Source of the DNA: Squalus acanthias
Taxonomy: Eukaryota
Assembly: GCA_030390025.1 (NCBI GenBank)
Contig: CM059431.1
Location: 151,964,001 to 152,028,000 of the forward strand
Direction: 5' to 3'
Length of the DNA stretch: 64,000 nt
The position numbers and the translations under genes are program-made. The notes beneath the pieces were generated by a model. That model was not told where the DNA came from and made no database searches. It saw nothing but the letters and a program-made list of their open reading frames with translations. Shown here one piece after another: positions 13,142 to 52,277 of this stretch. The stretch's first letter is position 1. The number at the start of each line of letters is the position of its first letter.

Positions 13142-14043
13142 TCAGATTTTGCTAACCAAGTTCCGAATCAATGTCCAAGGAGATTTCACTAATCTCACCA
13201 GCTCTTCCCTGAATTTGGTTTGGGTCGCTGCATAAATGCACGTGTTTGTGCAGGAGCTCAAATACATGAGCATAAATCCGGTTGCAGAGGCGATGTATGC
13301 AGGAGATGTATAATCGGGTCGAATATAAATGGCCAGGGAGCTAAATAAATAACTAACGATAGATGTCAGCCATAACAATATAATACTGCCCGATACACTG
13401 AAGAGTAAAATTATGGATTTCCTCCGGCTCTCCATCTCTGGATCGCTCTGTTTCTCACTGCAGTGACCCCGGAGTCGCCTGCGGGCCCTACTGGCAGCTA
13501 GAATACACCTGACTGTCAAACCATTAAACAGTAATATCAAAGCGAAGGGAAGCGTTGGACATACAACAGATTCGAACCAGATGTACGCTATACCTGTTGG
13601 CGAGGTAAAAAAGTCGATTTTTAAGCGGCAACCCCAGTGGGTGTTGTTAATGATTCGTTCAGTTTCAGATGCAAACGAATATGGGATCTTTTCCAAACAG
13701 AGCAGAACAGAGACCGTTGTTATGACGGCTGCCGCAGTTCTCACTGTGCAATATTTCGCTTTAAACGTCTCACAACATATCGCGACATAGCGGTCCAGTG
13801 TGAAGGTGACGGTAAACCACATGGATATACTGATGACAGCACTATTCAAGTATATAAGCAACCTACAGATGGCAGTGTAACTGAGGAATGAATGTGGAAA
13901 GTGATATGTAAAAACGCGGTACAGCAGCACATTGAAGAAGATGACCAGTAGATCTGCTGTTGCCATGGCCACCATGTAGACCGAGATACCTTTGGAAAGA
14001 CCGCATTTTCCTCCGGAGAGAATCACTATTGTCAGTAGGTTCG
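13142..14043 (-). CDS. GPR139-like class A GPCR, coding exon 2 (end of TM1 through TM7 and helix 8)
   Basis: Acceptor CTTACAG|CG at 14044/14043; open frame ANLLTIVIL..MATADLL..TLDRYVAIC..LPFALI..SCTNTCIY..FREEL; resembles recalled GPR139 (ANILTVIIL, TIDRYIAVC). Confidence 0.9.
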
Positions 14044-14881
14044 CTGTAAGATAGAGGGACAAGCGGTCAGTAACGGGCACAGTCGGATAAATCTCACACC
14101 AATTGTGGGGAAATGTGCAGATGGTTTACTATGCAGGTGGATTTTTAATTATATAGGCGAGCGTTAACGAAGATTTCTTAAAAAAAAACATGGAACCCTC
14201 AATATAAAGCGACTGCAAATCCGCCTCCCTTCCCTGCAGACTTCAGACAGACATCGCCAGATATTAAATATAATTTCACAACAATTACTGCAAAGATATG
14301 AATTCAAACGAAACATTCAGTTGCGAGAATATCATTCAATTTAGATTGAAACTCTGCGCTTTTTCCATGCACAATCGCCCTCGGAGGGTGGCGGGGGTGG
14401 AGCTGCTCGGCAACAGAGCGGGAGCTGGTGGAGACGCGAAGGTTCTTTGCAGCCGAGGGGAGTGGAGCAGCTCCCTGAGCCGCAACTGTTGCTCAAAGTA
14501 TCTTTCAAAATCCCCTGTTGGGTGGAGGTGGCTGCAGTTCGAGCAATTATCAACGTGAAATAAATAGGGTAGAAGTGTACAACTGATGTGATTACTATCC
14601 ACAGGAAGAAACACATCCTGTAGTGATCTCTATACTGTTGGGGGAGACGGGGAATGTCAGCTTCCCCCTCCCTCAGTACAGGGAGGAAAGGCGAGCGCCC
14701 GGCACCCACGATCTACCGACCAGGCTCACCAGCCGCGTGGACTAGTTGGATTCCCACTGACATTCACCAACTTATCCCGATGGATAAGTGACTCTGCAAT
14801 GAGAACCTTCTCGGAATCATTACATAATCATTAACACTGAGATAGTCAACAACCATTAGGCAACAGGATTCACTGACTTAC

Positions 14882-14951
14882 CGGGAATGCCAAAGGCTGC
14901 GAGAGCAGGATAGCAAATGATGCTGACCATTTGAATTGTTGGAAGTGCCAT
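14882..14951 (-). CDS. GPR139-like GPCR, coding exon 1 (MALPTIQMVSIICYPALAAFGIP)
   Basis: ATG at 14951; 70 nt ending CCCG|GTAAGT; the phase-1 splice joins in frame (G|CG = Ala), giving 323 aa with a complete TM1. Confidence 0.85.
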
Positions 14952-15029
14952 TTCTTTTAGAAGGATATGTGACTTCTGTGCGGCAGTATGGTTATCATCA
15001 GAGTGTACATGTGATCCATAAACACTCTC

Positions 15030-15037
15030 CTTTTATA
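15030..15037 (-). promoter_or_regulatory. Candidate TATA box of the GPCR gene
   Basis: TATAAAAG on the minus strand ~80 bp upstream of the ATG. Confidence 0.5.
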
Positions 15038-15361
15038 GAAAACTCGCTGTCCCTTGAGAAATTTAGTCACAGGACAATTGGAGTTAGTTACAGTCACTTA
15101 ATCAAAAAGGCAAGATTTTCCGCTTCAGTGTCCGTGTGAAACCAAAGGGGAAATTTTACAACTCAGTTCATGTAACTCCATCAATTCAAATTAATGAACG
15201 GGAACTGATACCAGATGGAATGTACTGGGCTCAAGCAACGTGATCCCCGAAGGGAACATTCCACACGGGCATTGCATTAGGTTACTGGTACCTTGTAATC
15301 ATTCGTGAATTCTTAACTCATCCATTAGATAATTAAATTTAGCTTTGTACTATGATGATAA

Positions 15362-16735
15362 ATGGAGGTGATCCTACTCTAACCTTACTGGTGGTGATCC
15401 GACTCTAATATTACTGGTGGTGAAACTGCACTGTCATGACTGGTCGTGAATCTGCACTAACATTACTGGTGGTAACTGTACTCTGACAATACTGGTGATG
15501 ATCATGCTCTAAAATTACTGATGAGGACCCTACTCTAAAATTACTGGTGTTGACCCTGCTGTAACATTACTGTTGAGGTCACTAATTAACATAACTGGTG
15601 GTGACTCTACTCTAACATTACTGGTGGTGCCTATGATCTAACATTACGGTGGTGACTATACACTAACATTAATGGAGGTGGCCCTACTCTAACATTACTG
15701 ATGATGACCCTACTCTAAATTTATTGGTGATGACAATACTCTGATATTACTTGTGGTGATCATACTCTAAAATTACTGATGGTGATCATAAGCTAACATA
15801 CTGGAGGTGACCATGCTGTAACATTACTAATGAAGACCCTATTATAAAATTACACTAATTAACATTACTGGTTGTGACTCTACTCCAACAATACTGGAGG
15901 TGACTCTACTTTAACATTACTGTTCAGGACCCTATTCTAACATTAATGGTGGAGAGTATACTTTAAAATCACTGGCTGTGACTCTGCTCTAACATTACTG
16001 GTGATGAGTCTAGTCTAACTTAACTGGTGGAGGCAATACGCTAACCTTACTGGCAATGGTCCTACTCTAACACTACTGGTGGTGAACCTACACTAACATT
16101 ACTGGTAGTGATCCTACTCTAGCATTACTGGTGGCGAGTCTACTCTAACTTTATTGGTGCTGATTCTATGCTTACGTTAATGCTGGTGACCCTACTTTAA
16201 CATTACTGTTGCTGTCCCCACTCTGACATTTGTGATGGTGACGAGTCTACTCTAATAATACTGGTGGTGCTTCTAGTCTAACATTACTCGAGGTGACCCC
16301 GCTGTAACTTTACGAGTGGTGACTATACCCGAACAATACTGGTGGTGAACCTAATTTAACAATACCAGTGGTGATCATAATCTAACATTACTGGTGGTGA
16401 CTCTACTCTAACATTACTGGCGGTGACTCGACTCGAACATTACTGGTGGTGACTCTACTCGAACATTACTGGTGGTGACTCTACTCTAACATTACTGGTG
16501 GTGACTCTACTCTAAAATTACTGGTGGTGACTCTACTCGAACATTACTGGTGGTGACTCTACTCGAACATGACTGGTGGTGACTCTAATCTAACATTACT
16601 GGTGGTGAGTCTACTCTAACACTACCGGTGGTGACACTACTCTAACTTAACTGATGGTGACTTTATTCTAACATCACTTGTGATGAGCCTAATCTAACAT
16701 TACTGGAGTTGAATTTGTGCTAACATTTCTTTAAT
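15362..16735. repeat. 26-bp minisatellite (CTGGTGGTGACTCTACTCTAACATTA), block 1
   Basis: Tandem units; near-perfect run at ~16385-16620. Confidence 0.95.
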
Positions 16736-16739
16736 AGTC

Positions 16740-19198
16740 CTCCATGGGATGTGGGCGTCACTGGCGAACCAGCATTTATTGCCCATCCCTAATTCCCCTT
16801 GAGATGGTGTTGAGACGCCTTCTTGAACGCTGCAGCCCATGTGGTGAAGTTACACCCACAGTGCTGTTATGAAGGGAGTTCCAGGATTTTGACCCAGCGA
16901 TGGTGACGGAACGGCGATTTATCCCCAAGTCAGAATGGTGTGTGACTTGGAGGGGACCATGGAGGTGATGGTGTTCCCATGCGCCTGCTGCGGTTTTCCT
17001 TCTAGGTGGTAGAGGTCGTGGGTTTGGGAGGTGCTGCCGATGAAGCAGTGGCAAGTTGCTGCACTGCATCTTTTAGTTGATACACACTCGAGCCACGGTA
17101 CGCCGCTGGTGGAGGGAATGAAGGGAGGTGTTGGATGGAGTGCCGATCAAGCGTGCTAATTTGTCTTTGATGGTGTCGAGCGTCTTAAGTGTTGTTGGAG
17201 CTGCAGTCATCTAGGCAAGTGGAGTGTATTTCATCACACTCCTGACTTGTGCCTTATAAATGGTGGAAAATCTTTGGTTAGTCAGGAGGTGATTCACTCG
17301 CCGTAGAATACCCAGCCTCTGACATGCTCTTGTTGAGACAGTATTTATTTGGCGGATCCAGTTAAGTTTCTGGTCAATGGTGACCATCAAGATATTGATG
17401 GTGTGGTATTCGGCGATGGTAATGCCGCTGAATGCCAAAGACTGGCTGTTAGATGCTCGCTTGTTCGATATGGTCATTGCCTGGCACTTGTGTGGCGCGA
17501 ATGTTACCTGACACTTATCAACCCAAACCAGAATGCCGTCCAGGTCTTGATGCATGAGGCCATCGACCTGCTTCATTTTTTGACGAGTTGTGAATGGCAC
17601 TGAACTCTGTGTAGTCGTCAGCGAACATCCACACTTCTAACCTTATGATGGCCGGTAGTTCATTGATGAAGCAGCCGAAGAGGATTGGGGCTAGGACACT
17701 TCCCTGAGATACTCCTGAAGTGATGTCCTGAAGACGTGATGATGGATCCCCAAACACCACAGCCATCTCCCTTTGTGCTTGGTATGACTCCAGACAGTGG
17801 AGAGTTTCGCCTCACCTCCCGATTCCCATTGACTTCATTACTAGGGCTAATTGATGACACATTTGGTGAAATGGTGCCTTGATGTTAATGGCAGTCACTC
17901 TCGCCTCTCCACTGGAATTCAACTCATTTGTCCATGTATGGACGAACGCTGTAATGAGGTCTGGAGCCGAGTGGTCCTGGCGGAACCCAAACTGGGCATT
18001 AGTGAACAGGTTATTGTTGAGTAAGTGCCGCTTGATAGCACTATCGATGACCAATTCCATCACCTTTCTGATGATTGAGAGTTTACTGATGAGTCGGTAA
18101 TTGGCTGGTTTGAATTTTTCTTGCTTTTTGTGGACACGACGTACCTGGGCAGTTTTCCACATTGTCGGATAGATGCCACTGTTGTAGCTGTACTTGAACA
18201 GCTTAGCTAGTGGAGCGGCTACTTCTGGAGCACAACTCTTCAGCACGACAGCCGGGATGTTGTCGGGCCCACCGACTTTGCTGTCTGCAGTGCGCTCAGC
18301 TGTTTCCTGACATTACGTGGAATGAATCGAATTGGCAGAAGAGAGTCTTCTTTGATGGTGCGGACCTCAGGAGGAGGCTGATATCTATCATCCACTCGAC
18401 ACCTCTGGCTGAAGATGGTTGCACACACATCAGCCTTGTCTTTTGCACTCACGTGCTGGGCTCCACCATCATTGAGAATGGGGATAATAATGGCGCCTAC
18501 TCCTTCAGTTAGTTGCTTAATGGTCCACCACCATTCACGACTGGATGTGGCAGACAGCAGATCTTTGATCTGATCCGTTGATTGTGGGATCTCTTATCAC
18601 TGTCTGCAGCATGCTTCCGCTTTTTAGCGTTTGGACCAAGGCTGTAATGTGGTCTGGAGCTGGGTGGTCCTGCCGGAACCCAAACAGATTCAGTGAGCAG
18701 GTTATTGGCGAGTAAGTGCTGCTTGATAGCATTATAGATGACAAAATTCATCACTTTGCTGATGATTGAGAGTTTACTGATGAGGTGCTAATTGGCTGGA
18801 TTGTATGTGTCCTGCTTTTTGTGGACAGGACATAACTGGGCAGTTTCCCACATTGTCGGATAGATGCCAGTGTTATAGCTATACTGGAATAGCTTGGCTA
18901 GAGGAGCGTCTAGTTCTGATGCACAAGTCTTCAGCACGACAGCGGGAAGTTTTCGGTTTCCACAGCCTTGGATGTATCCAGTGCGCTCAGCCGTTTCTTG
19001 TTATCACGTGGAATGAATCGGATTGGCTGAAGACTGGCTTCTGTGATGGTGGGGACCTCAGGAGGAGGCCGATATGGATCATCCACTCGGCACTTCTGGC
19101 TGAAGATGGATGCACACGCTTCAGCTTTGTCTATTGCAGTCACGTGCTTGGCTCCACCAGCATTAAGGATAGGGATATTCATGGCGCCTCCTCCTCCC
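16740..19198 (-). mobile_element. CR1-group LINE (family B) 3' half with an internal re-duplication, inside the 26-bp array
   Basis: 3' tail at ~16745-16830; RT motifs; ~18630-19198 repeats most of ~17935-18510. Confidence 0.88.
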
Positions 19199-21514
19199 AT
19201 TACATTGCTGGTTCTGACTATATGCTAACATTACTGGTGGTGACCCTACTCTAACATTTCTGGTGGTGAACCAACTCTGCCATTACTCGTAGTGTTCTTA
19301 CTCTAACATTACTGGTGGAGATCATAACCTAACATCCTAAAATTTATCGTGATGAATTTAACCTAACATTACTGGTGGTGACACTGCTCTAACATTAGTG
19401 GTGAAGACCCTACTCCAACATTAATGGCGGTGACTCTACTCTAACATTATTGGTGGTGAAACTAATCTAACATTACTGGTGGTGACTCTACTCTGTGGCC
19501 CTACTCTAACATTACTGTTGGTGGCCCTACTCTAGCATTACTAGTGGTGACTCTACTCTAACATTACTGGTGGTGACTCTACTCTAACATTACTGGTGGT
19601 GAGTCTACTGTAACATTACTGGTGGTGACCCCACTCTAGCGTTACTAGTGGTGAATCTACTGTAACATTACAGGTGGTGACTATGCACTAACATTACTGG
19701 TGGTGGCCCTACATTAGCATTACTGGTGGAGACTCTACTCTAACATTACTGGTGGTGACTCTACTCTAACATTACTGGTGGTGACTCTACTCTGTGTCTC
19801 TACTCTAACATTACTGATGATGACCTTACTCTAACATTATTGCTGATGACATTACTCTGATATTTATGATGGTGATCATATTCTAACATTACTTGTGGTG
19901 TCCTCTAACATTACCGCTGGTGACCCTACTGTAACATTACTGGTATTGATCATAAACTAACATTACTGGTGTTGACCCTACTCTAACAATACTGGTGATG
20001 CTTCTACTCTAACATTACTGAATGTGACCCTGCTCTAACAATACTGGTGAGGACACTGCTTAACATTATTGGTGGTGATTGTGCACTAACAGTACTGGTG
20101 GTGATTCTTATGTAACTTCACTGGTGAGGACACTACTTTAACATAACTGGTGGTGACTCTTCTCTATCATTTCCGGTTGTGAACCGACTCCAACATAACT
20201 GGGGATTAACCTTCTCTAACTTTAATGATGGAGACGAGAACCTAACATTACTGGTTGTGGCTCCGCTCTAACATTACTGATGATGAGTCTGGTCTAACTT
20301 AACTGGTGGAGATAATACGCTAAACTTGCTCGCGATGACCCTACTCTAACAGTACTGATGGTGACCCTACACTAACATTACTGCTGGTGAACTTCCTTTA
20401 ACTTGACTGGTGGAGACCATATTCTAACATTACAGGTAGTGAATCTGCTCTAACATTCCTCGTGATGAGTCTAGTCTAACTTAACTTTTGAAGACAATAC
20501 GCTAACCTTGCTGGTGGTGATCCTGCTCTAGCACTACTGGTGGTGACTCTACATTAACATTACTGGTGCCGAGTCTACCCTAACATTACTGGTGGTCACT
20601 CAACTCTCACATTACTGGTGGTGACCCTACATTAACATTACTGGTGCCGAGTCTGCTCTAACATTACAGGTGGTGACTCTACTGCAACATTACTGTTGAT
20701 CCTTTTATTCCTACATTACTGGTGCCGAGTCTACTCTCACATTAACGGTGCTGAGTCTACTCTAACATTACAGTTGGTGACTCCACTGTAACATTACAGG
20801 TGGTGACTCTACTGTAACATTACTGTTGATGCTTCTACTCCTACATTACTGGTACCGAGTCTACTCTAACATTACTGTTGCCGAGTCTACTCTAACATTA
20901 CAGGTAGTGACTCTACTCTAACATTACTGTTACTGTCCCGAGTCTAAAATTACTGATGATGTCCCGACTCTAACATAATCGTGAGGACACTACTCTGACA
21001 TTAGTTGTGGTGTCGCTACTCTAAAAATACCGGTGGTGCTTCTACTATAACATTAGTAGAGGTGACCCTGCTCTAACTTTACTCTGACAATACTCGAATA
21101 TTACTGGTGGTGAATCTACCTTAACAATAATAGTAGTGATCATAATCTAACATTACTGGTGCTGACTCTAATCCAACATTACTGGTGTTGAATCTACTCT
21201 CACAATACCGGTGGTACTTCTCCTCTCACATTACTGGTGAGGACCCTACTTAATATCACTGCTGGAATCTCCGCTCTAACATAACTGTTGGAGAATCTAC
21301 TCTAGCATAACCGGTGGTGACACGACTCAAACATTTCTGGTGATGACCATACTCTAACGGTACTGCTTGTGAACCTACACGAACATTACTGCTGGTGATC
21401 CTGCTCTAGCATTACTGGGGGTGACCCTACTTTAACTTTACTGGTGGAGACCATATTCTAACCATACTGGTTGTGAATCTGCTCCAACATTACTGGTGAT
21501 GAGTCTAGTCTAAA
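19199..21514. repeat. 26-bp minisatellite, block 2
   Basis: Same unit. Confidence 0.95.
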
Positions 21515-21722
21515 CATAGAAGCATAGAAGATAGGAGCAGGAGTAGGGCATTCAGCCCCTCGAGCCTGCTCCGCCATTCAATGCGATTATGGCTGATCAC
21601 CCAAATTCAGTACCGTGTCCCTGTTTTCACCCCATATCACTTGATCCCCTTAGCCTTAAGAAATATATCTAACTCCTTCTTGAATATATTTAATGAATTG
21701 GACTCAACTGTCTTCTGTGGTG
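21515..21722 (-). mobile_element. CR1 3'-terminal fragment
   Basis: CATAGAA tail; ATAGGAGCAGGAGTAGG..CATTCAGCCCCTCGAGCCTG. Confidence 0.85.
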
Positions 21723-21789
21723 GTCAACTCGAACATTACTGTTGGTGACTCTACTCAAAAAATACTGGAGTTGATTCTACTCTAACATT

Positions 21790-22432
21790 GGGCCAGAAAT
21801 TCGGTTTTCCGGCTTCCTGCGGGTGTAAGCATCGCAAGCGTACTTACCGACCGCGCCTGCAGTTGTGTTTTGGGACCACGACAACTTCGGGTTCTGGGCA
21901 TCCTCCAGCTGCCAGCGCGCAGTGCTTGCATGTGCTGTCAAATCTATGAATTGAAATCGGCCCCAAAACAACACCTAAACTGTAAACAAATGAATAAAAA
22001 TCACATTTTTAAAATAACTATATGTTAAATAAATTAAATACTTTAAACAAAAATTTAAATTTTTGAAAAAATTAAAATACATTTTCATGTTGCTAAAAAT
22101 AAACTTACCTTTCTTTAAAATATCTTTAAAAAATAAACCTGTTGAAAAAGTTTTTAAATTGCAATGAATTAACCACTTACATTGTAAAAACGGGTCTTGC
22201 GCCTCCTTTTTAAAAGCGCAGCTTCTTGCATACTTACCTTCCCGGAGAAAGCTAAAAAAACCTGAAGTTCGCTGCATGTGCGCAGCCTCTCCCACGCACC
22301 TGGTTCACCTCTGAACCCCTCCCTTCCCGAGACAGGAAGTTGCGCAGTGCATGCAGGAAAACGGCACTTCGAGTGGCGTTACCGGTGAGTACACAGTGCG
22401 TACTCACCCGACAAGTGCCGAATTTCTGTGCC
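21790..22432. mobile_element. Non-autonomous DNA transposon (PIF/Harbinger-like MITE)
   Basis: TIRs GGGCCAGAAATTCGG / CCGAATTTCTGTGCC (13 of 15 match); 3-bp TSD ATT; subterminal inverted similarity; AT-rich core. Confidence 0.75.
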
Positions 22433-23405
22433 ATTATTGGTGAGGACTGTACATAACATTACTGGTGTTGCTTCTACTCTACTGTACAGGTGGTGATCAA
22501 CCTTCTCCAACATTACTAGTCGCGACTCTACTCTAACCTTACTGGTAGTGCCACCGCTCTAAAATTATTGGTGGTGATTCTACTCTAACATTACTGTTGG
22601 TGACCCTACTGTATCATTACTGGTGATGTCACTGATCTAACATTATTGGTGCTGTCACTAATCTAACATTACTGGCGGTGACTCTGCTCTAACATTACTG
22701 GTGGTGATGCTAATCTTACATTACTGGTGGTGACTCTACTCTAACATTAGTAGTGTTGACCCTACTGTAACATTACTGGTGGTGTCTCTACTCTAACACT
22801 ACTGGTTGTGACCCTAATCTAATATTAGTGGTGATGATTCTACTCTATCATTACTGGTGCTGACTCTACTGTAAGATTACTGGTGGTGACTCTAATCTAA
22901 TATTAATGGTGGCGACTCTACTTTAACATTACTGATGATGACCCTACAGTGACATTATTGGTGATTATATTAATCTGATATTAATAGTGGTGATCATACT
23001 CTAACATTACTGGTGGTATACTCTAACATTACCGAAGGTGGTCCTACTCTAACATTACTGATGTTGATCAGAAACTATCATTACTGGAGGTGACACGACT
23101 CTAACAATACTGGGGTTGCTTCTAATCTAACATTATTGGAGGTGACCCTTCTCTAACATTACTGGTTAAGACCCTACTCGTAAATTACTGGTGGTGACAC
23201 TACTCTAATTTTATTGGTGGAGACAATTATCTAACATTACAGGCTGTGACTCCACTCAAACATTACTGTTGATGAGTCTAGTCTAACTTAACTGGTGGAG
23301 ACAATACACTAACCTTACTCGCGATGACCCTACCCCACACTAATGGTGGTGACCCTACACTAACATTGCAGTGGTGATCCTACTCTAGCATTACTAGTGG
23401 TGACT
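22433..23405. repeat. 26-bp minisatellite, block 3
   Basis: Same unit. Confidence 0.95.
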
Positions 23406-23425
23406 CATAGTTTCATAGAGTCATA

Positions 23426-23690
23426 GGGTTGGATTTTGAGACTGGGGCGGGTTGGGGTCGTGTCATCCGCATTTCGTGTTTTTCCCGCCCGCAATTGGAT
23501 GTGGGAGATTGATGCAATTTTCACTTAATTTGGCAATTGAGTTCTAGCATGTGGGAACCCATGAACCAATTAGTGGTTTCAGTCTGAAAGTCGCCTCTGA
23601 TGATCTCATCATTACAGGTCAGAGACTGCCTGGTCTCAGAGATTGCCTGGCCTTTGCTGTGAGAGGACCTGGCTGCAAAATGAGCAGCAT

Positions 23691-23725
<35 letters not shown>

Positions 23726-24197
23726 TTTTTTGCAACCAAGTCCTCCCAGGCAGTCTCTGAAGACATTCAATGCAGCAGCATCAGAGGCGACTTTCAGACC
23801 TAATACTAATACTACCTTCATCAATATGCTACTACTACCTTCATCACATCTCCGTTGTAATAGTGGACCTGCAGCTGATAGTCAGCTATCCGCTTGTGCT
23901 CCCACCAGTTTTCACTGGCGTTTTTCAAATCAGGCGTACTTCATGTTGGAAAAGGGTTAAACTAGCTAACACGTTTCAAAATAGCATTACAGAGCCAATT
24001 TAGGGCTTGTTCAGGGCTTTAATGGCCTTTCCCGCCTCTTAGAGGCAGGACGGATTCGGGAACCACGCGACCGATTTTGTCAAAATAGTGTGGCGGCGGA
24101 TTGGATTCGGGATGGTGTCAGGACCCCCAAATCTGCAACTTTAAACCCCCCCACACGCCTCCAAACCCGACTCCACGGGTCATTGAAAATCCAGCCC
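23426..24197. mobile_element. Harbinger-like MITE inserted in a short minus-strand CR1 tail (~23406-24293)
   Basis: TIRs GGGTTGGATTTT / AAAATCCAGCCC; TSD ATA/AAA; the CR1 tail CATAGAGTCATA|GAGTTATACAGC resumes after it. Confidence 0.75.
23694..23722. repeat. (GA)n microsatellite
   Basis: About 14 GA units. Confidence 0.95.
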
Positions 24198-24294
24198 AAA
24201 GAGTTATACAGCACAGAAAGAGGCCCTTCGATCCATCTGTCCGCGCCGGCCAACAAGCCCTGTCTATTCTAATCCCATTTTCCAGCACTTGGTC

Positions 24295-27200
24295 TGGTGA
24301 TTGTATTCCAACATTACTGCTGGTGACCCGTCTCTATCAATACTGATGGTGCTCATACGATTCCATTACTGGTGATGACTCTAGTTTAACATTTCTGTTG
24401 ATTACTCTGGTCTAACATTAATTGATACTACTTCAACATTACTGGTGATGAACCTGCTCTAACATTAATGGTGGTGACCCTACTATAACATTAAATATGG
24501 TGATCCTACTCAAACATTGCTGGTAGTGACACTGCTTTATCATTACTGGTGGTGACATTAAACTAAATGTAGTGTTAGTGACTCTACTCTAACAATACTG
24601 GCGATGACTCTACCCGAATTTTACTAATTGTGACTCCAATCTAACGTTAGTTTTGGTGTCTCTACTCTAACATTACAGTTGAATACGCCAATCTAACATT
24701 ACCTGTGGTGAATCTACTCTAACATTACTGGTAGTGACCTTCCTGTAACATTTCTGGTGATGACCCTACTCTAACATTACTGGTGTTGACAGTACTCTAA
24801 CATTACTGTTGATGACACTGCTCTAATATTACTGGCCATGGCTCCACTCTAACATTTCTGGTGATGACCCTACTTTAACATTACTGATGATGACCCTACT
24901 TTATCATTACCGTTGTTGATCATAATCTGACATTTTACTTGATGACCCTACTCTAACTTTATTTTTGGTCATTACAGTTTAACATTACTTGTGGTGTCCA
25001 AACTATATCATTACTGTTGGTGAGCATACTCTATCATTACCAGTGGTGAACGTACACTAACATTATTGGTGGTTACCCTATTCTAACCTTACTCATAGTC
25101 TCTCTATTGTAGCATTCCTTGTCATGACGCTACCAAGACACTACTGGTGTTTACCCTACTCTAACACTAATGGTGATGACCCTACTCCAGCATTACTGGT
25201 AATTACCGAGCTGTGACATTACTAGTGGTGCTTCTACTCTAACGTTACTGGTGTCGAGTTTACTCGAACATTACTGGTGGTGAATCTACTAGAATATTAA
25301 TGATGGTGAGTCTACTCGAACATTACTCGTGATGACTCTACTCTAACATCATTGGTGGTGACACTACTCTAACATTACTGTTGGTGTCCCAACTCTAAAA
25401 TTACTGTTGATGTCCCTAGTCTATCATTATTGGTGATGACACTACTCTGACATTAGTTGTGGTGACCGTACTCTAACAATACTGGTGGTGCTTCTACTCC
25501 AACATTATTGGTGGTGACCCTGCTCTAAATTTAATAGTGGTTAATGTACTCGAACATTACTGGTGGTGAACCTACTTTAACAATACTGGTGGTGATCATA
25601 ATCTAATTTTGGTGGTGGTGCTTCTACTCTGACCTTACCGGTGAGGACCCTACTCTAACATTACTGGTGATGACCCAATTTTAACATTACAGTTGGTGGC
25701 AGTACTCTTACATTACTGGGTATGACCGTACTCTTAAATTAATGGTGGTGAATCTAATTTAACAATACTGGTGGTGATCATAATCTATTGTTGCTGGTGG
25801 TGCTTCTCCTCTCACATTACTGGTGAGGACCCTACTCTAACATTACTGGTGGTGACCCTATTTTATCATTACTGTTGGTGGCTGTACTCTAACATTACTG
25901 GTTATGACACTACTTTTAAATTAATGGTGGTGAACCTACTCTAGAATTACTGGTGGAGATCGTACTATAACATTACTGATGATGACCCTATTCTAACATT
26001 ACTGGTGATGACACTACTCTACAATTACTGGTGGTGCTTCTACTCTAACATTACTGGAGTTGACCCTGCTCTAACTTTACTAGTGGTGACTATACACGAA
26101 CATTACTGGTGGTGAACCTACTTTAAGAATACTGGTGGGGATCATAATCTAACATTTCTGTTGGTGACTCTATTCTAACTTTACTGGAATTGAATCTACT
26201 CTCACAATACTGGTGGTGCTTCTCTTCTCACATTACTGGTGACGACCCTACTTAACATCACTGCTGTTGACTCTGCTCCAGCATTACTGGTGAGGCTCCT
26301 ACTGCAACATTACTGGTGGTAACCCTGGTCTATCATTACTGGTGGTGACTGTACTCTAACATTACTGGTCATGACCGTACTCTTAAATTACTGGAGATGA
26401 CTCTACTCTAAAATTACTGTTGGTGACCGTCCTATAATATTACGGGTTGTGAGCCTACTCTAACATTAATGTTGGTGATCCTACTCTAACATTACTGCCG
26501 ATGACTCTACCCTAACTTTTCTGACAGTGATTCTACTCTAACATTACTGATGATGACTTTACTTTGACATTATGGTGCTGACTCTACTCTACCATTACTT
26601 GTGGTGACCTTACTCTAACATTGCTGGTGTTGACCCGACTCTAACTTTATTGGTGGCGACCGTACTCTATTATTACTGATGTAGAGCCTACTCTAACATT
26701 ACTGGTGATATCTCATCAGTAACATTACTGGAAGTGACTGTTCTCTAAAATTAATGTGGGAGACCATACCCTAAAATTCATGGTGTTGATCTTACTCGAA
26801 CATTACTATTGGTGACCCTGCGCTAATATTACTGGTGGTGAACCTACTCTAACATTACTGGTGATGACGTTACTCTAACCTTACTGGTGAGCAGCCTGCT
26901 CTAACATTATTGCTGGTGACTGTATTCTACGATTACTGTTGGTGACCAGTCTCTATCAATAATAGTGTTCAACACGCGATACCATTACTGGTGATAACTT
27001 TACTCAAACATTACATGTGATCACCCTTCTCCAACATTACCAGTTGTGATTCTACTCTACGGTGCTGACACCGTTCGATAATTACTGGTGGTGACCCCAC
27101 TCTATCATTATTGGTTATGATCAAACTGTAATATTACAGTGGTGACCCTACTCTATCATGACTGATGGTGATCATACACTAACGTTATTGAAGTGGCTCT

Positions 27201-27920
27201 AAACTAATATATCTGGTGGTGAACGTACTCTATCTTTACTTTTGGTGGCCCGAGTCTAACATTACTGATGATGACACTACTCTAACATTACTGATGCTGG
27301 CATTAATCTAACGTTACTGGTGGTGACCCTACTCTAGCATTATTAGTGGTGGCCTTACTCTAACATTACTTGTGGTGACCCTACTCTAACATTAATTGTG
27401 TTGACCCTACACTAACATTACTGGTGGTGACGCTACTCTAACATTCCTTGTGGTGACCCTACTCTAACTTTACTGGTGGTGACCCTACTCTAACAATACC
27501 GCTGGTGACCGTCCTCTAACATTAGTGGTGGCGACTCTACTCTAATATTACTGGTGGTGACTCTACACTAACATTTCAGGTGGTGACTCTACACTAACTT
27601 CATTGGTGGCGACTCTACTCTATCATTACTGCTGGTGATCCTCCTCTAACATTACTGGTGACGACTCTACTCTAACGTTAATGCGGATGACACTTCAACA
27701 TCATTTCTGATACTTGCCGTACTGCAACCTTACTGGTGGAGAGCTTTCTCTGGTTTTATTTCAAAATACTCCACTGTAATGTTTTTCTGGAGATGATCCT
27801 TCTTTAACATTACTAGGTGTGCCAGTATACTAGGAATATGTGTGGAGACTGCACGCTGCATCTTCGTCTGGTGAACCCACTCTACCATTATTGATAATGA
27901 GGTTGCTATAACATTACTTT
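24295..27920. repeat. 26-bp minisatellite, block 4 (decays toward the right end)
   Basis: Same unit, more diverged after ~27700. Confidence 0.93.
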
Positions 27921-34000: not shown

Positions 34001-35868
34001 AAAAGATTAGCATGGAAAATTGAAGCTCATGGGATAAAGGGGAAAGTATTGACGTGGATAGAGAACTGGCTGTCAGATAGAAAACAGAGAGTTGGAATAA
34101 ACGGCTCATTTTCTGAATGGCAGGCAGTAACAAGTGGGGTACCACAGGGATCTGTCCTGGGTCCCCAGCTGTTCACAATTTACATTAATGACCTGGATCA
34201 GGGAGTCGGATGCAACATTTCCAAATTTGCAGACGACACTAAACTAGGAGGCGGGGTGGGCTCAGAGGAGGAGACCAGGAAGCTCCAGAGCGATTTGGAC
34301 AGACTGGGTGATTGGGCGGATAAATGGCAGATGCACTATAATGTGGACAAGTGCGAAGTTATCCACCTTGGGTGCAGGAACGGGAGGGCAAATTATTATT
34401 AAAATGGCAATAAATTGGGAGAGGGGGAAGTACAGAGAGACCTGGGTGTTCTTGTACACCAGTCACTGAAGGCGAGCATGCAGGTGCAACAGGCGGTCAA
34501 GAAGGCAACGGTATGCTGGCCTTCATAGCAAAAGGGTTGGAATACAGGAACAGGGATACCTTGCTGCAGCTGTACAGGGCACTGGTGAGACCACACCTCG
34601 AGTACTGTGTACAGTTTTGGTCGCCTCATCTGAGGAAAGATGTTCTTGCCATGGAGGGGGTGCAGCGGCGATTCACCAGGCTGATACCAGGAATGGCGGG
34701 ATTGACCTATGAGGAGAGACTATGTAGTTTAGGGATATACACACTGGAGTTTAGAAGATTGAGAGCGGACCTCATAGAAGCGTATAAAATTCTGACAGGT
34801 CTAGACAGACGAGATGCAGAAGGAATGTTTCCCTTGGCGGGTGAGAACAGAACTAGAGGACATAATTTAAGGATAAGGGCTAAACCATTTAGGACAGAAA
34901 TGAGGGGGAATTTCTTCACTCAGAGGGTGGTGAATCTGTGGAACTCATTGCCACAGAGGGCAGTGTACGCCAGCTCATTAAATATATTTAAGAGGGAATT
35001 AGATATATTTCTACAGGCAAAAGGGGTTAAGGGTTACGGAGAGAAGGCGGGGACGGGATACTGAATTGGAGGATCAGCCATGATCTCATTAAATGGCGGA
35101 GCAGGCTCGAAGGGCCGGATGGCCTACTCCAGCTCCTATCTTCTATGTATCAATGTATATGTAACTCCCAGGTCCTTCTTTCCCTGCACTTTCTTTGAAA
35201 CTGTGCCATTAAGTGTATATTGCCTCTCACTGTTCCTTCTGCCAAAATTCATAACCTCACACTTCTCTGTATTAAATTCCATTTACCAATTGTTTGCCCA
35301 TTCTGCTAGCCTTTCTATGTCCTGTTGCAGTCGATTGCTATCGTCATCACTGTTTGCCACACCCCCAAATTTGGTGTCATCGGTAAATTTAGAAATTCTA
35401 CTTCGCATTCCAATATCCAGTTCAATTATATATATCAAAAAAAGCAGTGGCCCCAGCACTGACCCTTGGGGAACAGCACTGTCGACCATGCTCCAGTCTG
35501 AAAAACAGCCATTTACCACAACTCGCTGTTTACTGTCCTGAAGCAAATTCCGTATCCAAGCTGCCACTGACCCACCTATTCCATGAGCATCAATTTTCTT
35601 AACCAGCCTTCTATGTGGTACTTTGTCAAACGCCTTCCGAAAATCGATGTAGCCAGCATCCATTGCATTCCCTTCATCAATCCTCCCTGTTACTTCATGA
35701 AAAAATTCATTTAGATCAGTCAAACACGATCTGACTTTTACAAATCAGTGTTGGCTTCCTTAATTAGCTTAAACCTCTCCAACTACACGTTAATTTTTTC
35801 CTTGATTATTGTTTCTAAAACTTTACCCACCACTGATGTTAAACTGACCGGCCTGTAGTTACTAGGAT
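31073..35868 (-). mobile_element. Older CR1 (31073-31766 and 35162-35868), split by a younger CR1
   Basis: Host sequence is continuous across the insertion: GCACATTAACT|CCCAGGTCC. Confidence 0.85.
31767..35161 (+). mobile_element. Young 5'-truncated CR1 LINE: ORF1 C-terminus (SGNH esterase) and nearly complete ORF2 (APE + RT)
   Basis: VGTND..VVISGLLP..RDGLHL (ORF1, stop 32103); YLNARSI, ITETW, GDFN, SDHN, FADDTK; frameshifts near 33745, 34400 and 34510; TSD TAACT at 31762-31766 and 35162-35166. Confidence 0.95.
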
Positions 35869-36487: not shown

Positions 36488-37482
36488 ACATTGGAACAGG
36501 AGGAGGCCATTCAGCCTATTCAGCCTGTTACATTAGGGACAGGAAGAGGCCATTCAGACCCTAGAGCCTGTTACTTTAAGGAAAGGAGGCGGCCATTCAG
36601 CTCCTTCGATCATGCCACATAGGAAGAGGTGTAGGCCATTCAGCCCATGGAGCCTGTTACATTAGGAACAGAAGGAGGCCATTCGACTCCTCGAGCCTGT
36701 TACATAAGGGACAGCTGGAGGCCATTCAACCCCTAGAGCCTGTTCCATTTCTAACAGGAGTTGGCCGTTTAGCCCCCTTGAGCATGTCACCTCTGAACAG
36801 GATGAGGCCATTCAGCCGCTGGAGCCTGTGACATTAACAGGAGGAACGCATTCAGACTTCAAGCCTGTTACATGAGGAACAGTAGGCTGAACATTTCCCT
36901 CGAGTTTTTTTACACAGGAACAGAAGGAGACCATTCAGTCCCGCAAGCCGGTTTCATTAGGAACAGGAAGAGGTCAATCGCCCCCACCCACAATCCAGCC
37001 TGTTACATTAGGAACATGATGAGTCCATTCAGTTCATAGAGCCTGTTATATTAAGAACAGAAGGAGGTCATTCAGTTTATCGAGACATTTACATTAGGAA
37101 TATGAGTAGACCATTCAACACCTACGAGCATATCACATCGTAACATTAATATCCCATTCAGCTCATCGATCTTGTTCCATACAGAACAGGAGGAGGCAAT
37201 TCAGCCCCTTCGATCCTGTTACATTAGGGTCAGGAGGCCATTCAGTTCCCTCGAGTATGTTATACAGGTACATGAGTAGGCCATGCAGCTCATCGAGCCT
37301 GTCACTTTAAGAACAAGAGGAGGTCATTCAGCTCATCGAGCCACTCAGATAAAGAATTGGTGGAGGCCTTTCAGCCCCTCGAGTCTGTCACATAAGGAAC
37401 AGGAGGAGGACAAACATTCCCTGCAGCCTGTTACATAATAACAGGGTGAGGCAATTAAACCCCTGGAACCTATTACATAAAG
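36488..37482. repeat. ~43-bp minisatellite derived from the CR1 3' tail (ACATTAGGAACAGGAGGAGGCCATTCAGCCCCTCGAGCCTGTT)
   Basis: About 23 diverged tandem units; the core matches CR1 tails at 21531-21570 and 7250-7290. Confidence 0.9.
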
Positions 37483-37484
37483 AA

Positions 37485-40274: not shown

Positions 40275-40361
40275 AGTGAGAAGTCGCACAACACCAGGTT
40301 ATAGTCCAACAGCTTTATTTGAAATCACAAGCTTTCGGAGCGCTGCTCCTTCGTCAGGTCA
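40275..40361 (-). mobile_element. 87-bp Penelope pLTR micro-insertion with 12-bp TSD
   Basis: Flanked by ATCCTTGATTAA at 40263-40274 and 40362-40373; single-copy empty site at ~60686. Confidence 0.85.
40325..40360 (-). ncRNA. Minimal type I hammerhead ribozyme motif
   Basis: CUGACGA-A-GGAGC-AGC-GCUCC-GAAA-GCUU-GUGA; perfect stem II and palindromic stem III; 5' arm of stem I clipped at the junction. Confidence 0.72.
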
Positions 40362-47327: not shown

Positions 47328-47945
47328 TATTCCCGGTGTATTGCAATGACACAATAGTTACCTTTCCCTCGGGATGCAGATTATGTGGGGCAAAGCTTTC
47401 CTACAAATATTTTCATGTTGCGGTTCCATTGTATCCCATCCCAATCAAATCCACATGCAGGTGCTGCGTGTTCAACCTCGTCATAAGGGCAGATGAATGT
47501 ATCCCGAGCTTGAGCACACCCGGTAAGATCTGGAGCCCCCCATGTGGTCCCATCCACATGGGTCACATACAGCGGGGTTTCGTCATACCTTATTAAGCAT
47601 ACTTCTACATTCTCAACGCGGAACAGAGGATTTGGGTTTGCCTTTTCTTGCAGAATGGGATAATACAATACCGTCCCTAATAAGGTGATGTCCTTCTGTT
47701 CCTGCAAATGGCGGTAATGTTTCATGGTACACCTGTACCAACCCCCTGACTTTGCACATATTCATGGTAAATTGTGGTGTACTTTGCCATCAGCTTTCGA
47801 TCAGTCACCCACAAGAGGAGTTCTCCTGAGCAGGTTTTCACGGGCTTGTTCCACTAACCAAATTCCATACATTACACAAACATTATTTCGTGCGGCCTCA
47901 CTAGAGGCATTCAGATTCTCCTTTAAAATTGTGTTTATCTTTTAA
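47328..47945 (-). mobile_element. Frameshifted env/fusion-glycoprotein-like fragment of an LTR retroelement or endogenous retrovirus
   Basis: Pieces: INTILKENLNASSEAARNNVCVMYGIWLVEQARENL / LWVTD / LGTVLYYPIL..LFRVENV..RYDETPLYVT..PDLTGC..TFICP..CGF / GKGNYCV. Confidence 0.5.
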
Positions 47946-47954
47946 GCTTTTACA

Positions 47955-48482
47955 AGGCCTTTCGGCTCATTGTGCCTGTGCCAGCTCTTTAAAAGAGCTA
48001 TCCGATTAGTCCCACTCCCCTGTCCTTTCCCCGTAGCACTGTAAAATGTTCCCCTTCAAGTATTTATCCAATCCCATTTTGAAAGTTACTATTGAGTCTG
48101 TTTCCACCACTCTTTCAGGCAGTGCATTCCAGATCATAACAACTCACTGCACACAAAAAGTTCTCCTCATCTCGCTGCTGGTTGTTTAGCCAATCACCTT
48201 CTGGTTACCGACCCACCTGCTACTGGAAAGAGTTTCTCCTTCTTTAGTCTATCAAAACTCTTCATCATTTCAAACACCTGCACTAAATCTTTTAACCTTC
48301 TCTGCTCGAAGGAGAGCAAACCCAATTTCTCTGCTCTCCCCCCGTAACTGAAGTCCCTCATCCCTGGGACCATTCCAGTAAATCTCCTCTGTATCCGACA
48401 TCGTTCCTAAAGTGTGGTGCCCAGATTGGGACACAATAATCCAGTTGTGGCCTAAGCAGTATTTTATAAAGGTCTAGCATTA
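47955..48482 (-). mobile_element. Old CR1 3' fragment (paralogous to ~57925-58295)
   Basis: Shares text with the 58-kb copy and precedes the same tRNA-cassette flank. Confidence 0.75.
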
Positions 48483-48905
48483 CTACAAGAGGCCTCTGCT
48501 AAGAAAGACAACGATCTAATCGGCTCTTTTCCCATTTTCGCACATAGTTGCTTTTGAAGCTTTGCTTGCATTCCCCCCTGTCCGTGTTCAGTCTTGCTCA
48601 CCAGTTCCCAGTGCGTGCATTTGCAAAGATTTCCCAATTGGTCTGCTACTGACATGTTGTGTCCATCTTTGCCCTCACCTTAAAGTAGCAGTTAGCTCAC
48701 GATTATCCATTTTTACTTTCACCCACACAGCCCCAGAAAACATAAAACATTAAAGAGCGTGTAGATAGTGGTGGTGGGGCAGGGTATTGGTGAAGTGTGG
48801 GTGTGAGAGAAATGCGCTGTACAGACGGGATCTGTGCAGAAGGATGTGAACGATGTAATGTTGAATGTCAGTCAGTGAAGATCGCTGAATAGCTTACAGG
48901 CATGA

Positions 48906-48978
48906 TACCGGGTGATTCAGTCGGTCGGGCATCCGACTTTTAATCTGAGGGTTAAACGTTCAAGTCCCTGGTCGGGCG
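48906..48978 (+). pseudogene. tRNA-Lys(UUU) pseudogene (73 nt)
   Basis: TCAGTCGG..CATCCGACTTTTAATCTGAGGG..GTTCAAGTCCCTGGTCGGGCG; stem mismatches. Confidence 0.85.
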
Positions 48979-49378
48979 CTGATTTTTACAGTGAAGACAA
49001 CTCCTAAATTTATACTTGAAAGCAGTGAAATTAGAAAATACCCCATCAAAAGAATCATACGTTTACTTGCAACGGTTCAACATAGAGTAAGTAAATACTT
49101 GAAAATGTAATATATTTCAAAATTCAGGGGTTGTGACAAATATGCAACACATATTAAGAAGTTTTATTGAGACAACAGGGAAGAGCAGCTTGAAACGCTC
49201 GTGTTTCATGGAGCTGCATGAACATAGGAATTGATCATCTCGAAACTACCGCTCAATGTATATTAAAGCACCGCCACTGAGACAAATCTTTCAAATACGT
49301 TAATGAGATCAGCATGAACGGTTTGTGCTTCAGGGGGTTGCCTGAAAGATGGAATTGAGAATTTTGATTTAAAAGCAG

Positions 49379-49450
49379 CATTCGTACAGGAACTTGAACC
49401 CTGAACCTCAGATTAAAAGCCTGATGTTTCACCGACTGAGCTATCTGGGT
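49379..49450 (-). pseudogene. tRNA-Lys(UUU) pseudogene, convergent partner of 48906-48978
   Basis: ACCCAGATAGCTCAGTCGGTGAAACATCAGGCTTTTAATCTGAGG..GGGTTCAAGTTCC; acceptor stem broken. Confidence 0.87.
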
Positions 49451-49499
49451 TCGCGCATTTTCTTATATCACAGCGACTTTCAATGGGTTTCAACTAGCT

Positions 49500-51284
49500 T
49501 GGCAGAGAGATGGGCACAAATATGATGTTGTGGCAATACTGGAAACGTGGCTTAACAACGGCGAGGACAGGCCACTTAACATTTAAGGGCAAACGGTGTT
49601 CAGAAAAGATAGGGAAGGAAAAAAGGGAGGTGGAGTGGCAGTGCTGATTAAGGAAGACATTGTAGTGGTGGAAAGGGAGGATTTTCTTGAGGCGACTAGG
49701 AAATAATCCATTTGATTACATTTGAGTATAACGCTATTCGGAGTATTCTACAGGCCTCCAAATAGTCAGAGGAAGGTAGAGGAGCAAATCTGCAGGTAAA
49801 TCGCAGAGATATGCAAGAGCTATAGAGTGGTGATATTGAGCGACTTTAATTACACAAATATAGATTGGGATAATGATAGGGTAAAGGGAAAGGTGGGGGA
49901 GGAATTTCTGAAATGTGTTCAGGAGATTTTACTTGACCAGTATGTTTTTGGCTCAACTAGGGAGGAGTCATTGCTGGATCTGGTGCTGGGGAATGAGATG
50001 GGCCAGGTCGAACAAGTGTCTGTAGGAGAAGACTTGGGTCCGAGGAATTATCATATCATAAGATTTAGATTAAAAATGGAAAGGAGCAAAGAGCAATCTA
50101 GAGCGGAACTTCTAAACTGGAATAGGGCTAACTTCAATGAGATGCGAAAAGTTCTAGCCAGGGTAAGACTGACAGGAAAAAATATAAGGGAGCAATGGGT
50201 TATCTTTAAGGAGGAGATGTTCTAAGTACAGACTAGGTACATTCCAACAAGAGGGAAGGGTAAGGGAAACAAAGCAAGGGCTCCTTGGATGACGAGGTAG
50301 ATAGAGAATACGATGAAATAAAAAGAAGAGGATTTATGATGCATGTCAGGTGAATTCTTCAAGTGAGAACGAGACCAAATACAATAAGTTGAGAGGGGAA
50401 GTGAAGATGAAAATAAGATTGGCAAAGAGAGAATATGAGAGTAGAATGGCGGTTAACATAAAAGGGAACCCATAAATCTTCTACTGGCATGTAAAGATTA
50501 AGCGGGTAGTAAGAGGCGGGGTAGGGACTATTAGAGACAAAGAAGGCGATATAAGCTTAGAGGCGCAGGGCAAGGCTAGAATATTGAATGAATACTTTTA
50601 TCGGTGTTAACATAGGAGGTGGCTGCTGACACAATATGGGTAGAAGTGGAAACGTTATAAGCAATGGAAGGAATGCGAATTAATAGACAGGATGTATTAG
50701 AAAGGCTGGGTATACTTGGAGTGGACACGTCGCCTGTTCCAGATGGCTTGCATCCCAGGTTGCTAACGGAATTGGGGGAGGAGATAGCAGAAGGGCTTGC
50801 CATAAATTTCCAGTCTTCCCTAGATGGGTAGAGGTGCCCGAGGATTGGAAAGTGGCAAATGTTATACCATTGTTCAAGAAATGGTGTAAGGACAATCCTA
50901 GTTACAACAGGCCAGTCAGCTGAACATCAGAGGTGGGTAAAGTTCTAGAAACAAAAATGAAGGAAAACATTAACAGGCACTTTAAGAGAGGTTTAAGCTA
51001 ATTAAGGTGAGCCAACGTGGATTTGTAAAAGGCTGAAGCTGTTTTACTAATCGAATTGAATTTTTAAATGAATTAACAAAGAGGATTGATGATTGAATGC
51101 AATGGATGTTGTCTACATAGATTTTAGGAAGGCGTTTGACAAAGTACCAGAATGGTTCCGGGACTGGGTGATCTTATCTACAAGGACAGGTTGGAGAAGC
51201 AGGATTTGTTTTCATTAGTGCACAGGAGGTTGAGGCCTGATTTGATAGAGTTGGACGAGATTATGACGGGTTTGGATAGGCTAG
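49500..51284 (+). mobile_element. CR1 ORF2 fragment, paralog of 10505-12885
   Basis: Collinear with the 10.5-kb copy and likewise abuts a GPCR 3' flank. Confidence 0.88.
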
Positions 51285-51449
51285 CAACGATTATGTACAC
51301 CCGGGAAAAGCAGCAGACATCAAACACGAGGCACACAATGGAAGAAATGTTTCCTGATACCTGTTCAGTTTCGGAACAATAATTTGGTTTTCGTCCCAAC
51401 TGAAAGAAGGCCATTCTAAAACGGAACTCGATCTGCAATTAAGCTCTAG

Positions 51450-52277
51450 TTAGGATAGGAAGCTCGGGTTTGATCTTCCTATTTTGTTAACCAAGTTCCG
51501 AATCAATGCCCACGGAGATTTCACTAATCTCACCAACTCTTCCCTGAATCTGGTTTGGGTTGCTGCATAAATGCACGTGTTAGTACAGGAGCTCAAATAC
51601 ATGAGCATAAATCCGGTTGCAGAGGCGATGTATGCAGGAGATGTATAATCGATTCGATCAAAAATGATCAGGGAGTTAATTGAATAACTAACGATACATG
51701 TCAGCCACAAAACCAAAAAACTGCCTGTTACACTGAACAGTAAAATGATGGATTTCCTCCGGTTCGCCATCTCTGTATCGCTCTGATTCTCACTGCTGTG
51801 ACCCCGGAGTCTCCTGCGGGCTCTACTGGACACTAAAAAACTTCTGATTGTCAAACAATTAAACAGTAATATCAAAGCGAAAGGAAGCCCTACAATCAAA
51901 AAACTTTCTAACCAGATGAATGCTGTACCAACAGACGTGGTAAAAAAGCCAATTTTCAAGCGGCAACCCCAGTGAATATTGTTAATTATTCGTTCAGTTT
52001 CATATGCAAACGAATAGGGGATATTGTCTAAACAGAGCAGAACAGAAACCGTTGTTATGACGGCGGCCGCAGTTCTCACTGTGCAATATTTCGTTTTAAA
52101 CTTCTCAAAACTTATCGCGACATAGCGGTCAAATGTGAAGGTGACGGTAAACCACACGGACATATCGAGGGCAGCAGCATTCAAGTATATACGCAACCTA
52201 CAGACGCAGTGTAGCTGAATAATGAATGTGGAAAGTGATATGTAAATACACGGTACAGCAGCACATTGACGATCATG
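51450..52277 (-). pseudogene. GPR139-like GPCR pseudogene (paralog of 13142-14951)
   Basis: Homology stops in TM2 at ~52277 where CR1 begins; 1-nt deletion at ~52205; DRY, TM5-7 and the 3' flank are retained. Confidence 0.88.

Follow-up and report, generated by a model that had tools for sequence, protein, structure and literature searches.

An intact and a broken copy of a cartilaginous-fish class A receptor family in Squalus acanthias, with pocket-diversified paralogs and a candidate role in chemical sensing

The stretch of Squalus acanthias DNA analysed here (the window; 64,000 nucleotides, GenBank assembly GCA_030390025.1, contig CM059431.1, positions 151,964,001 to 152,028,000 of the forward strand) is vertebrate DNA rich in long interspersed nuclear elements (LINEs). 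In this setting, tBLASTn of the window identified two copies of a G protein-coupled receptor (GPCR), referred to as copy A and copy B, which lie 38 kb from each other on the minus strand. They are the window's only non-repeat coding sequences. On balance, we read them as an intact and a broken copy of a chondrichthyan class A GPCR family with pocket-diversified paralogs, which probably forms a repertoire of chemical sensors.

The two receptor copies and their divergence

The gene of copy A is intact, with two exons, and encodes a class A GPCR. Exon 1 (14882..14951, minus strand; 70 nt, MALPTIQMVSIICYPALAAFGIP) encodes a peptide resembling the N-termini of other family members, e.g. P0007 and P0016. 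It is followed by a phase-1 GT-AG intron of 838 bp (14044..14881, minus strand) that starts with GTAAGT and ends in a pyrimidine tract and TTACAG. Exon 2 (13142..14043, minus strand) runs from the end of transmembrane helix 1 (TM1) to helix 8 (H8) in an open frame of 299 aa (P0001), closed by the stop codon TGA at 13144-13142. Splicing, which we infer from these joints, would yield a product of 323 aa. About 80 nt upstream of the start codon lies a TATAAA box (15032..15037, minus strand), a putative promoter element. Exon 2 passes Pfam 7tm_1 with E=2e-21, and the 7tm_1 scores of 77.1 and 50.2 bits exceed the curated cut-off of 30.5, placing the receptor in class A. The predicted structure of copy A is a seven-helix bundle (predicted local distance difference test, pLDDT, 81.6), with Foldseek template modelling scores of ~0.7 against class A receptors. 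The class A motifs are present as N1.50, D2.50, C3.25 with a cysteine in extracellular loop 2 (ECL2), DRY, P5.50, W6.48, N7.49 and Y7.53; in most family members, P6.50 and P7.50 are replaced by Thr. The connector triad of copy A reads P-M-I, where 104 of its 120 nearest relatives have P-V-F (residues 74 and 220, i.e. 3.40 and 6.44). None of the 120 has both positions altered, unlike copy A, in which V3.40 and F6.44 are lost; either a compensated switch or decay could account for this.

Copy B (51450..52279, minus strand) is a pseudogene that starts abruptly within TM2, without TM1 and half of TM2, and ends with the stop codon TAA at 51452-51450. A 1-bp deletion at about 52206-52207, just before TM3, shifts its frame. 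The copy abuts a CR1-type LINE fragment (52281..52930, minus strand) that ends inside its own second open reading frame (ORF2). Exon 1, the intron and TM1 of copy B were looked for at E<=0.01 and not found within the window up to position 64000, beyond which they could lie; because of this, deletion is the simplest reading of the 5' loss. A 9-residue longer tail of copy B was considered as a further lesion and rejected, as the tails of Heptranchias relatives are of similar length. Likewise, a 308-codon ORF at 52376-51453 was rejected as a receptor, as it consists of a LINE-derived start fused to TM3-H8 and is without TM1-2.

Downstream of the copies lie two colinear LINE fragments (10515..11735 on the copy A side and 49933..51149 as its copy B counterpart), which mark a segmental duplication. 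About 190 bp of the 3' flank is also common to both copies. The LINE fragments show 207 mismatches in 1199 aligned bases (17%), a measure of neutral divergence, and the synonymous difference of the coding region (pS) is equal to it at 0.176. Given this agreement, the segmental duplication is read as an old one, and nothing points to a recent wholesale homogenisation of the copies.

Residues differ between the copies at 59 of 265 alignable codons, two codons at the copy B frameshift being excluded. The overall nonsynonymous rate (dN) is 0.128, the synonymous rate (dS) 0.201 and the nucleotide divergence 13%. According to an earlier note on this DNA, made from the letters alone, the copies are nearly identical through TM7/H8 and TM4 and differ densely in TM3, ECL2/TM5 and TM6/ECL3. 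All peptides it quoted were located on the minus strand, NSAVISI at 13846, DFFTSPT at 13615, YLFSSLA at 13351 and DYTSPAY at 13315 for copy A, and NAAALDM at 52181, GFFTTSV at 51950, YSINSLI at 51686 and DYTSPAY at 51650 for copy B. The near identity was confirmed for TM7 (0/26), TM4 (2/26) and H8 with the C-tail (3/27). In copy A, TM7 (13217..13315, minus strand) has 33 residues that are the same as in copy B, including a 66-nt identical run. Dense divergence was found in outer TM3 (7/17), outer TM5 (10/16) and outer TM6 (7/18), and not in ECL2 proper (4/24), which qualifies the earlier description. On copy A, the corresponding stretches are the outer TM3 patch (3.32-3.41; 13817..13846), the late ECL2/outer TM5 segment (13553..13615) and the outer TM6/extracellular loop 3 (ECL3) segment (13316..13351), all in the A/B alignment and on the minus strand. 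Differences also occur in inner TM5 (6/27), inner TM6 (7/22) and intracellular loop 2 (3/8).

In 20,000 permutations, the A/B differences cluster beyond chance as judged by adjacent differences (p=0.001), window variance (p=0.0006) and the 33-residue identical run (p=0.007), and not as judged by the peak count per 10-residue window (p=0.63). The extracellular half is modestly enriched, with 36/130 differences vs 23/135 in the inner half (p=0.04). When polarised against an outgroup protein of the sawshark Pristiophorus japonicus (P0003), 20 differences are derived in copy A, 23 in copy B and 16 are ambiguous, and 15 of the 20 copy-A-derived changes fall in the extracellular half. The TM3 patch contains a burst of six copy-A-derived residues within eight consecutive ones (scan p 0.0004-0.004), with 9 nonsynonymous and 0 synonymous differences. 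The three segments of the earlier note, which had been selected for divergence before the counting, hold 36 nonsynonymous and 4 synonymous differences, vs 35 and 30 outside.

A receptor family in cartilaginous fishes

A word-indexed search for relatives returned 2074 clusters at 90% identity (E<=0.001). The best 120 of these are all shark or ray proteins, nearly all automatically named 'probable GPR139'. Among these 120, at least 31 clusters come from Pristiophorus japonicus, at least 29 from Heptranchias perlo and at least 27 from Heterodontus francisci; taxa were taken from the best 120 of the 2074 clusters, and the counts are lower bounds. A search of 50% representatives gave 187 at E<=1e-10, and the deeper shark-clade representatives that were looked up are chondrichthyan in 16 of 16 cases, one being from Callorhinchus milii. 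A FastTree phylogeny of 217 rows (P0002, P0247 and those 215 of 301 proteins that cleared a 75% coverage threshold) contains many species-specific clades. In an IQ-TREE phylogeny of 47 hand-picked rows, the chondrichthyan proteins form a clade (96/92) that is sister to an amphibian and sturgeon lineage (100/99), and the window copies group with P0003 (100/98). Canonical GPR139 and GPR142 were not included in either tree. Further out are other coelacanth, bichir and teleost lineages and amphioxus. With many copies, lineage-specific clades and a pseudogene in the form of copy B, the birth-and-death family proposed in the earlier note is borne out, and a pocket-diversified birth-and-death family is very probable, whatever the tissue in which it acts.

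The sister gene (P0220, P0278-P0297) is a slowly changing orphan GPCR found in frogs, salamanders, a caecilian and sturgeon, each species having about one copy. Its 20 amphibian clusters each come from a different species, and the gene is apparently single-copy in amphibians and sturgeon. N2.50 replaces D2.50 in 20 of the 20 amphibian proteins counted. No amniote or teleost match was found in the search that returned the amphibian clusters. The sister gene (e.g. Xenopus tropicalis XP_031757816.1, Pleurodeles waltl XP_069092602.1 and Acipenser RXM35349.1) is 32-33% identical to shark members. Unlike these, it has about one cluster per species and a conserved pocket of Y3.32, F3.33, Q5.42, K6.51 and N7.39 in 23 of 23 proteins.

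Human GPR139 (PDB 7vug) is the best match by sequence among solved structures, with a single-sequence E=1e-7 and a profile score of 70.8 bits vs 51.9 for the next, CCR1. GPR139 reached only rank 5 in Foldseek, where the structure search does not discriminate among class A receptors. The identity to GPR139 is ~69 residues over query positions 1-282 (~25%, counted by hand). GPR139 is described as a two-exon gene that is 70% identical between human and zebrafish (PMC7318219), with E3.32, F3.33, H5.43, W6.48, R6.51 and N7.38 binding agonists (PMC7318219, PMC8807744). The corresponding residues of copy A are N, S, E, W, S and F, and only W6.48 of the six is kept in copies A and B. Position 6.51 is basic in 7 of 175 chondrichthyan proteins and in all 23 from amphibians and sturgeon. 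The identity of the window copies as GPR139 orthologs was therefore rejected, and the closeness to GPR139 itself that the earlier note had assumed was not borne out. By sequence, the family belongs to the GPR139 branch but is not GPR139. Since the Trp/Phe-binding residues are mostly lost and the identity is only ~25%, L-Trp or L-Phe should not be assumed as ligand.

The family shares with GPR139 and GPR142 the class A fold, the two-exon gene, SxWxTVxxTxDRY in TM3 and the lack of proline at the NPxxY position. Unlike them, it is multi-copy with fast turnover; the orthogroup labelled GPR142 in the whale shark study has 70 proteins from 35 taxa (PMC8455134). RefSeq models named 'probable G-protein coupled receptor 139' belong to the same family, including P0003 (72% identical) and P0004 of Heptranchias perlo (69%), and the GPR139 name of the shark, ray and Callorhinchus models is automatic only. 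GPR210A and GPR210B (coelacanth, gar and fishes; PMC6504862) are likewise non-mammalian orphan subtypes near GPR139/142. They differ in their low copy number and in falling outside the shark and amphibian clade, and no amphibian member is given in the available passage of PMC6504862. Lineages P0224, P0226, P0253 and P0313 of the tree (coelacanth, teleost and bichir) may correspond to GPR210A/B. Like the vertebrate olfactory receptors (ORs), trace amine-associated receptors (TAARs) and vomeronasal receptors (V1R/ORA and V2R/OlfC), the family combines birth and death, clustered copies, pseudogenes and binding sites that vary between paralogs but are conserved in orthologs (PMC3308321, PMC6368271). 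Unlike these, it matches only Pfam 7tm_1, and unlike the ORs it has a coding intron. No profile specific for OR, TAAR, V1R or V2R was hit in Pfam, with only PF00001 at E<=0.1, and no odorant or trace-amine receptor is among the 38 solved-structure sequence matches.

The predicted pocket was compared in pairs picked by hand from the FastTree phylogeny, comprising 29 pairs of paralogs within a species, 9 shark/ray pairs between species and 11 pairs from amphibians. No protein was used twice and the window copies were excluded; about one third of the paralog pairs are not strict cherries, having been taken from species-specific clades without internal resolution. In the paralog pairs, 26 predicted pocket sites differ at 152/753 positions vs 499/4298 for other membrane sites, the pocket rate being higher in 22 pairs and lower in 6 (sign p=0.004). 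In the between-species pairs, the predicted pocket differs at 34/234 vs 226/1327 (2 pairs higher, 7 lower), and in the amphibian pairs at 12/286 vs 208/1626, with none of the 11 higher. The pocket excess of paralogs over between-species pairs is significant (p=0.0005). Thus, as the earlier note had suggested from one pair, divergence among family paralogs is biased towards the predicted pocket, which varies among shark paralogs and is conserved among orthologs, an effect of about twofold. The same rule, 'ortholog-conserved, paralog-variable', has been used to predict the binding sites of odorant receptors (PMC3308321). The most variable sites include 6.51, 3.31, 3.33, 2.62, 2.65, 5.39, 5.46 and 7.39. 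Variation in the inner halves of TM3, TM6 and TM7 is 0.40-0.64 times the average, and all 120 relatives retain R3.50 and Y7.53. The conserved signalling core of the family consists of C3.25 with the ECL2 cysteine, D3.49-R3.50, W6.48, N7.49 and Y7.53. Sites that differ between copies A and B also vary more in other paralog pairs (0.18 vs 0.13; p=0.002).

Some further observations concern single branches of the family. In the subfamily of copies A and B, P0003 and P0318-P0320, ECL3 is two residues shorter and E7.36, present in 111 of the 120 nearest relatives, is lost, as is the usual basic residue at 6.59; E5.42 is present (8/120). The acidic pocket anchor may have shifted from TM7 to TM5 in this subfamily. 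The P0139 cluster (Chiloscyllium punctatum) groups a family member with one 601-aa model and another annotated as 'RING-type domain-containing protein', which may reflect the fusion of an adjacent RING/TRIM gene during gene modelling.

Possible roles of the family

As a mechanism, we propose that an ancestral receptor that carried a basic residue at 6.51 (the agonist-binding R244 of GPR139) would have been duplicated repeatedly in cartilaginous fishes. The copies would then have lost this residue and re-tuned a pocket formed by TM3, TM5, TM6 and TM7 to different small molecules or short peptides. Since the G-protein-facing surface would have been kept common, many ligands would feed one pathway. 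New copies would arise by tandem or segmental duplication within DNA rich in LINEs and satellites and would be lost by deletion or frameshift, as in copy B. The detection of external chemicals by sensory cells of smell, taste, skin or gut falls just short of an even chance as the use of such a repertoire. More tentatively, the family could be a fifth, lineage-specific chemosensory family of chondrichthyans, larger than all known olfactory families together and derived from a GPR139-branch orphan that is single-copy in amphibians and sturgeon. If true, this would explain the keen smell of sharks despite few OR, TAAR and V1R genes.

Cartilaginous fishes have been described as GPCR-poor (PMC8455134). 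In catshark, 34 V2Rs and 4-9 genes in each other olfactory family were reported (PMC10116579), and according to PMC6368271, which surveyed the known olfactory and taste families, the known olfactory families of catshark are small. A family of at least 27-31 clusters per species among the best 120 of 2074 is absent from this published picture. No description of the shark receptor family was found in the literature searched, which lies mostly outside subscription journals. The term 'GPR139' has 0 matches in the available text of PMC11979771 and its preprint, PMC8455134, PMC10620051, PMC10751288 and PMC10116579; 'shark' and 'cartilag' have 0 matches in that of PMC12208981 and are absent from the available main text of PMC6504862. 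The family is not identifiable in the whale shark orthogroup tables. The genes are thus already in RefSeq under a borrowed name, while the family itself is not described in the literature found. New here are the contrast between orthologs and paralogs in the pocket, the recognition of a single-copy sister gene and the finding that the 6.51 anchor is lost. The A/B pair is an ordinary example, and the interest rests in the family, which sharpens the question of which receptors carry the chemical sensing or the innate chemical surveillance of sharks. The single-copy sister gene of Xenopus and axolotl offers a laboratory handle on the ancestral ligand.

Several results weigh against a pocket-diversified sensor repertoire. 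In the A/B pair, the pocket enrichment at the residue level that the earlier note had expected is lacking: pocket-facing residues differ at 8/26 vs 51/239 (p=0.32), GPR139 ligand contacts at 4/13 vs 55/252 (p=0.49) and a 42-residue pocket set at 12/42, with p>0.3 for all three sets. The 13 ligand contacts are those of the published GPR139 structure (PMC8807744), the sets of 26 and 42 residues consist of generic class A positions, and pocket positions and residue numbering were self-assigned, anchored on conserved motifs. TM7 had served the note as a conserved contrast to the pocket. It is itself a pocket wall, with N271 7x38 and L275 7x42 in GPR139 (PMC8807744), and is identical between the copies. 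For the whole A/B pair, dN/dS is 0.64; it is ~1.0 in the extracellular half (0.180/0.175) and exceeds 1 only in windows picked post hoc (0.505/0.141 for the segments, from the DNA of two copies), so that the diversifying selection inferred in the earlier note is no more than a candidate. As copy A departs from seven well-conserved residues, among them V3.40 and F6.44 jointly, it may itself be impaired. At the family level, the pairs were drawn from the nearest 120 of the 2074 clusters and a small number of others, and may include alleles or pseudogenes. The predicted pocket exceeds other extracellular membrane sites only marginally (p=0.03, 0.06 and 0.17 for the three sets), and displacing the set along the helices still gives a rate of 0.14-0.19, compared with 0.20. 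Finally, no GPCR is among the 50 genes that the available text of PMC11979771 gives as most abundant and specific in a library from catshark brain and olfactory epithelium, and the catshark olfactory neurons are all Go/TRPC2-positive, fitting V2Rs (PMC10116579); because of these two results, smell is mildly weakened.

Another possibility is an immune or barrier repertoire, with leukocytes, mast-like cells or epithelia detecting peptides and metabolites of microbes or parasites. Formyl-peptide receptors and MRGPRs are mammalian sensors of this sort. The evidence for pocket diversification suits this use equally. In addition, three runs of the same species, presumed to be RNA of unspecified tissue, contain short pieces that are 80-95% look-alikes of other family members; they have no bearing on copy A, and none of the pieces in these runs reaches 95% or spans a splice joint. 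Against it, the closest human receptor is GPR139 (70.8 bits, compared with 51.9 for CCR1) and not a chemoattractant receptor. We regard the immune use as rather unlikely, with the larger share of belief remaining with external chemicals. Neuromodulator or hormone receptors like GPR139 and GPR142, still sensing L-Trp, L-Phe or endogenous peptides and multiplied for tissue-specific expression, are very unlikely. GPR139 is the best solved-structure match by sequence and also has two exons (PMC7318219), but copy A keeps only the tryptophan among its agonist-binding residues, a basic 6.51 is found in 7 of 175 family members, and true GPR139 is 70% identical from human to zebrafish (PMC7318219), vs ~25% here.

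A largely non-adaptive expansion would arise from unequal crossing-over in satellite and LINE DNA, with the constraint on the pocket relaxed after duplication. It would fit the dead copy B, the duplicated block with its LINEs and 26-bp satellite, the neutral value of ~1.0 in the extracellular half and the missing pocket enrichment in the A/B pair. It appears improbable, however, as the inner half is under purifying selection (dN/dS ~0.36), R3.50 and Y7.53 are kept throughout the 120 relatives, and the TM3 burst on the intact copy A has nine nonsynonymous changes and no synonymous one. Moreover, between-species sister pairs retain their pockets (34/234 vs 226/1327), which implies a function for each lineage. 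The earlier note had itself raised decay and patchy gene conversion as explanations to be checked. A local product of copy B decay and conversion homogenising TM7 would account for 66 identical nt across TM7 against 13% overall divergence, and copy B departs from 14 well-conserved residues vs 7 in copy A (p=0.19). Yet the changes polarised against the sawshark are split between the copies, and since those of the TM3 patch are derived on the intact copy A, decay of copy B cannot explain them. The divergent patches are also nearly without synonymous change. As for TM7, P0003 differs at only 1 of 40 residues over this stretch and a stretch as long as this one without synonymous change does not exceed expectation (p=0.12), so the identity needs no gene conversion. 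We therefore give this explanation slightly less weight still than the non-adaptive one, and retain the family of pocket-diversified chemical sensors as the preferred reading.

Repeats around the copies

A 26-bp satellite lies directly upstream of the copy A promoter in a region of ~12 kb (15363..27680), in four blocks of one orientation (15363-16706, 19202-21513, 22454-23404 and 24310-27680). It occurs nowhere else in the window, and no satellite was found on the copy B side up to position 64000. Degenerate 21-bp tandem arrays (GCTTGATAATTGATAATACAC-like) at 4-647 and 3001-3354 contain open low-complexity frames. The longest CR1-type LINE ORF2 remnant of the window lies at 32181-35061 (plus strand), with 528 + 230 + 216 codons over frameshifts, and is surrounded by many decayed LINE pieces. 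A 43-bp tandem array of ~23 copies at 36488-37478 resembles LINE 3'-end units.

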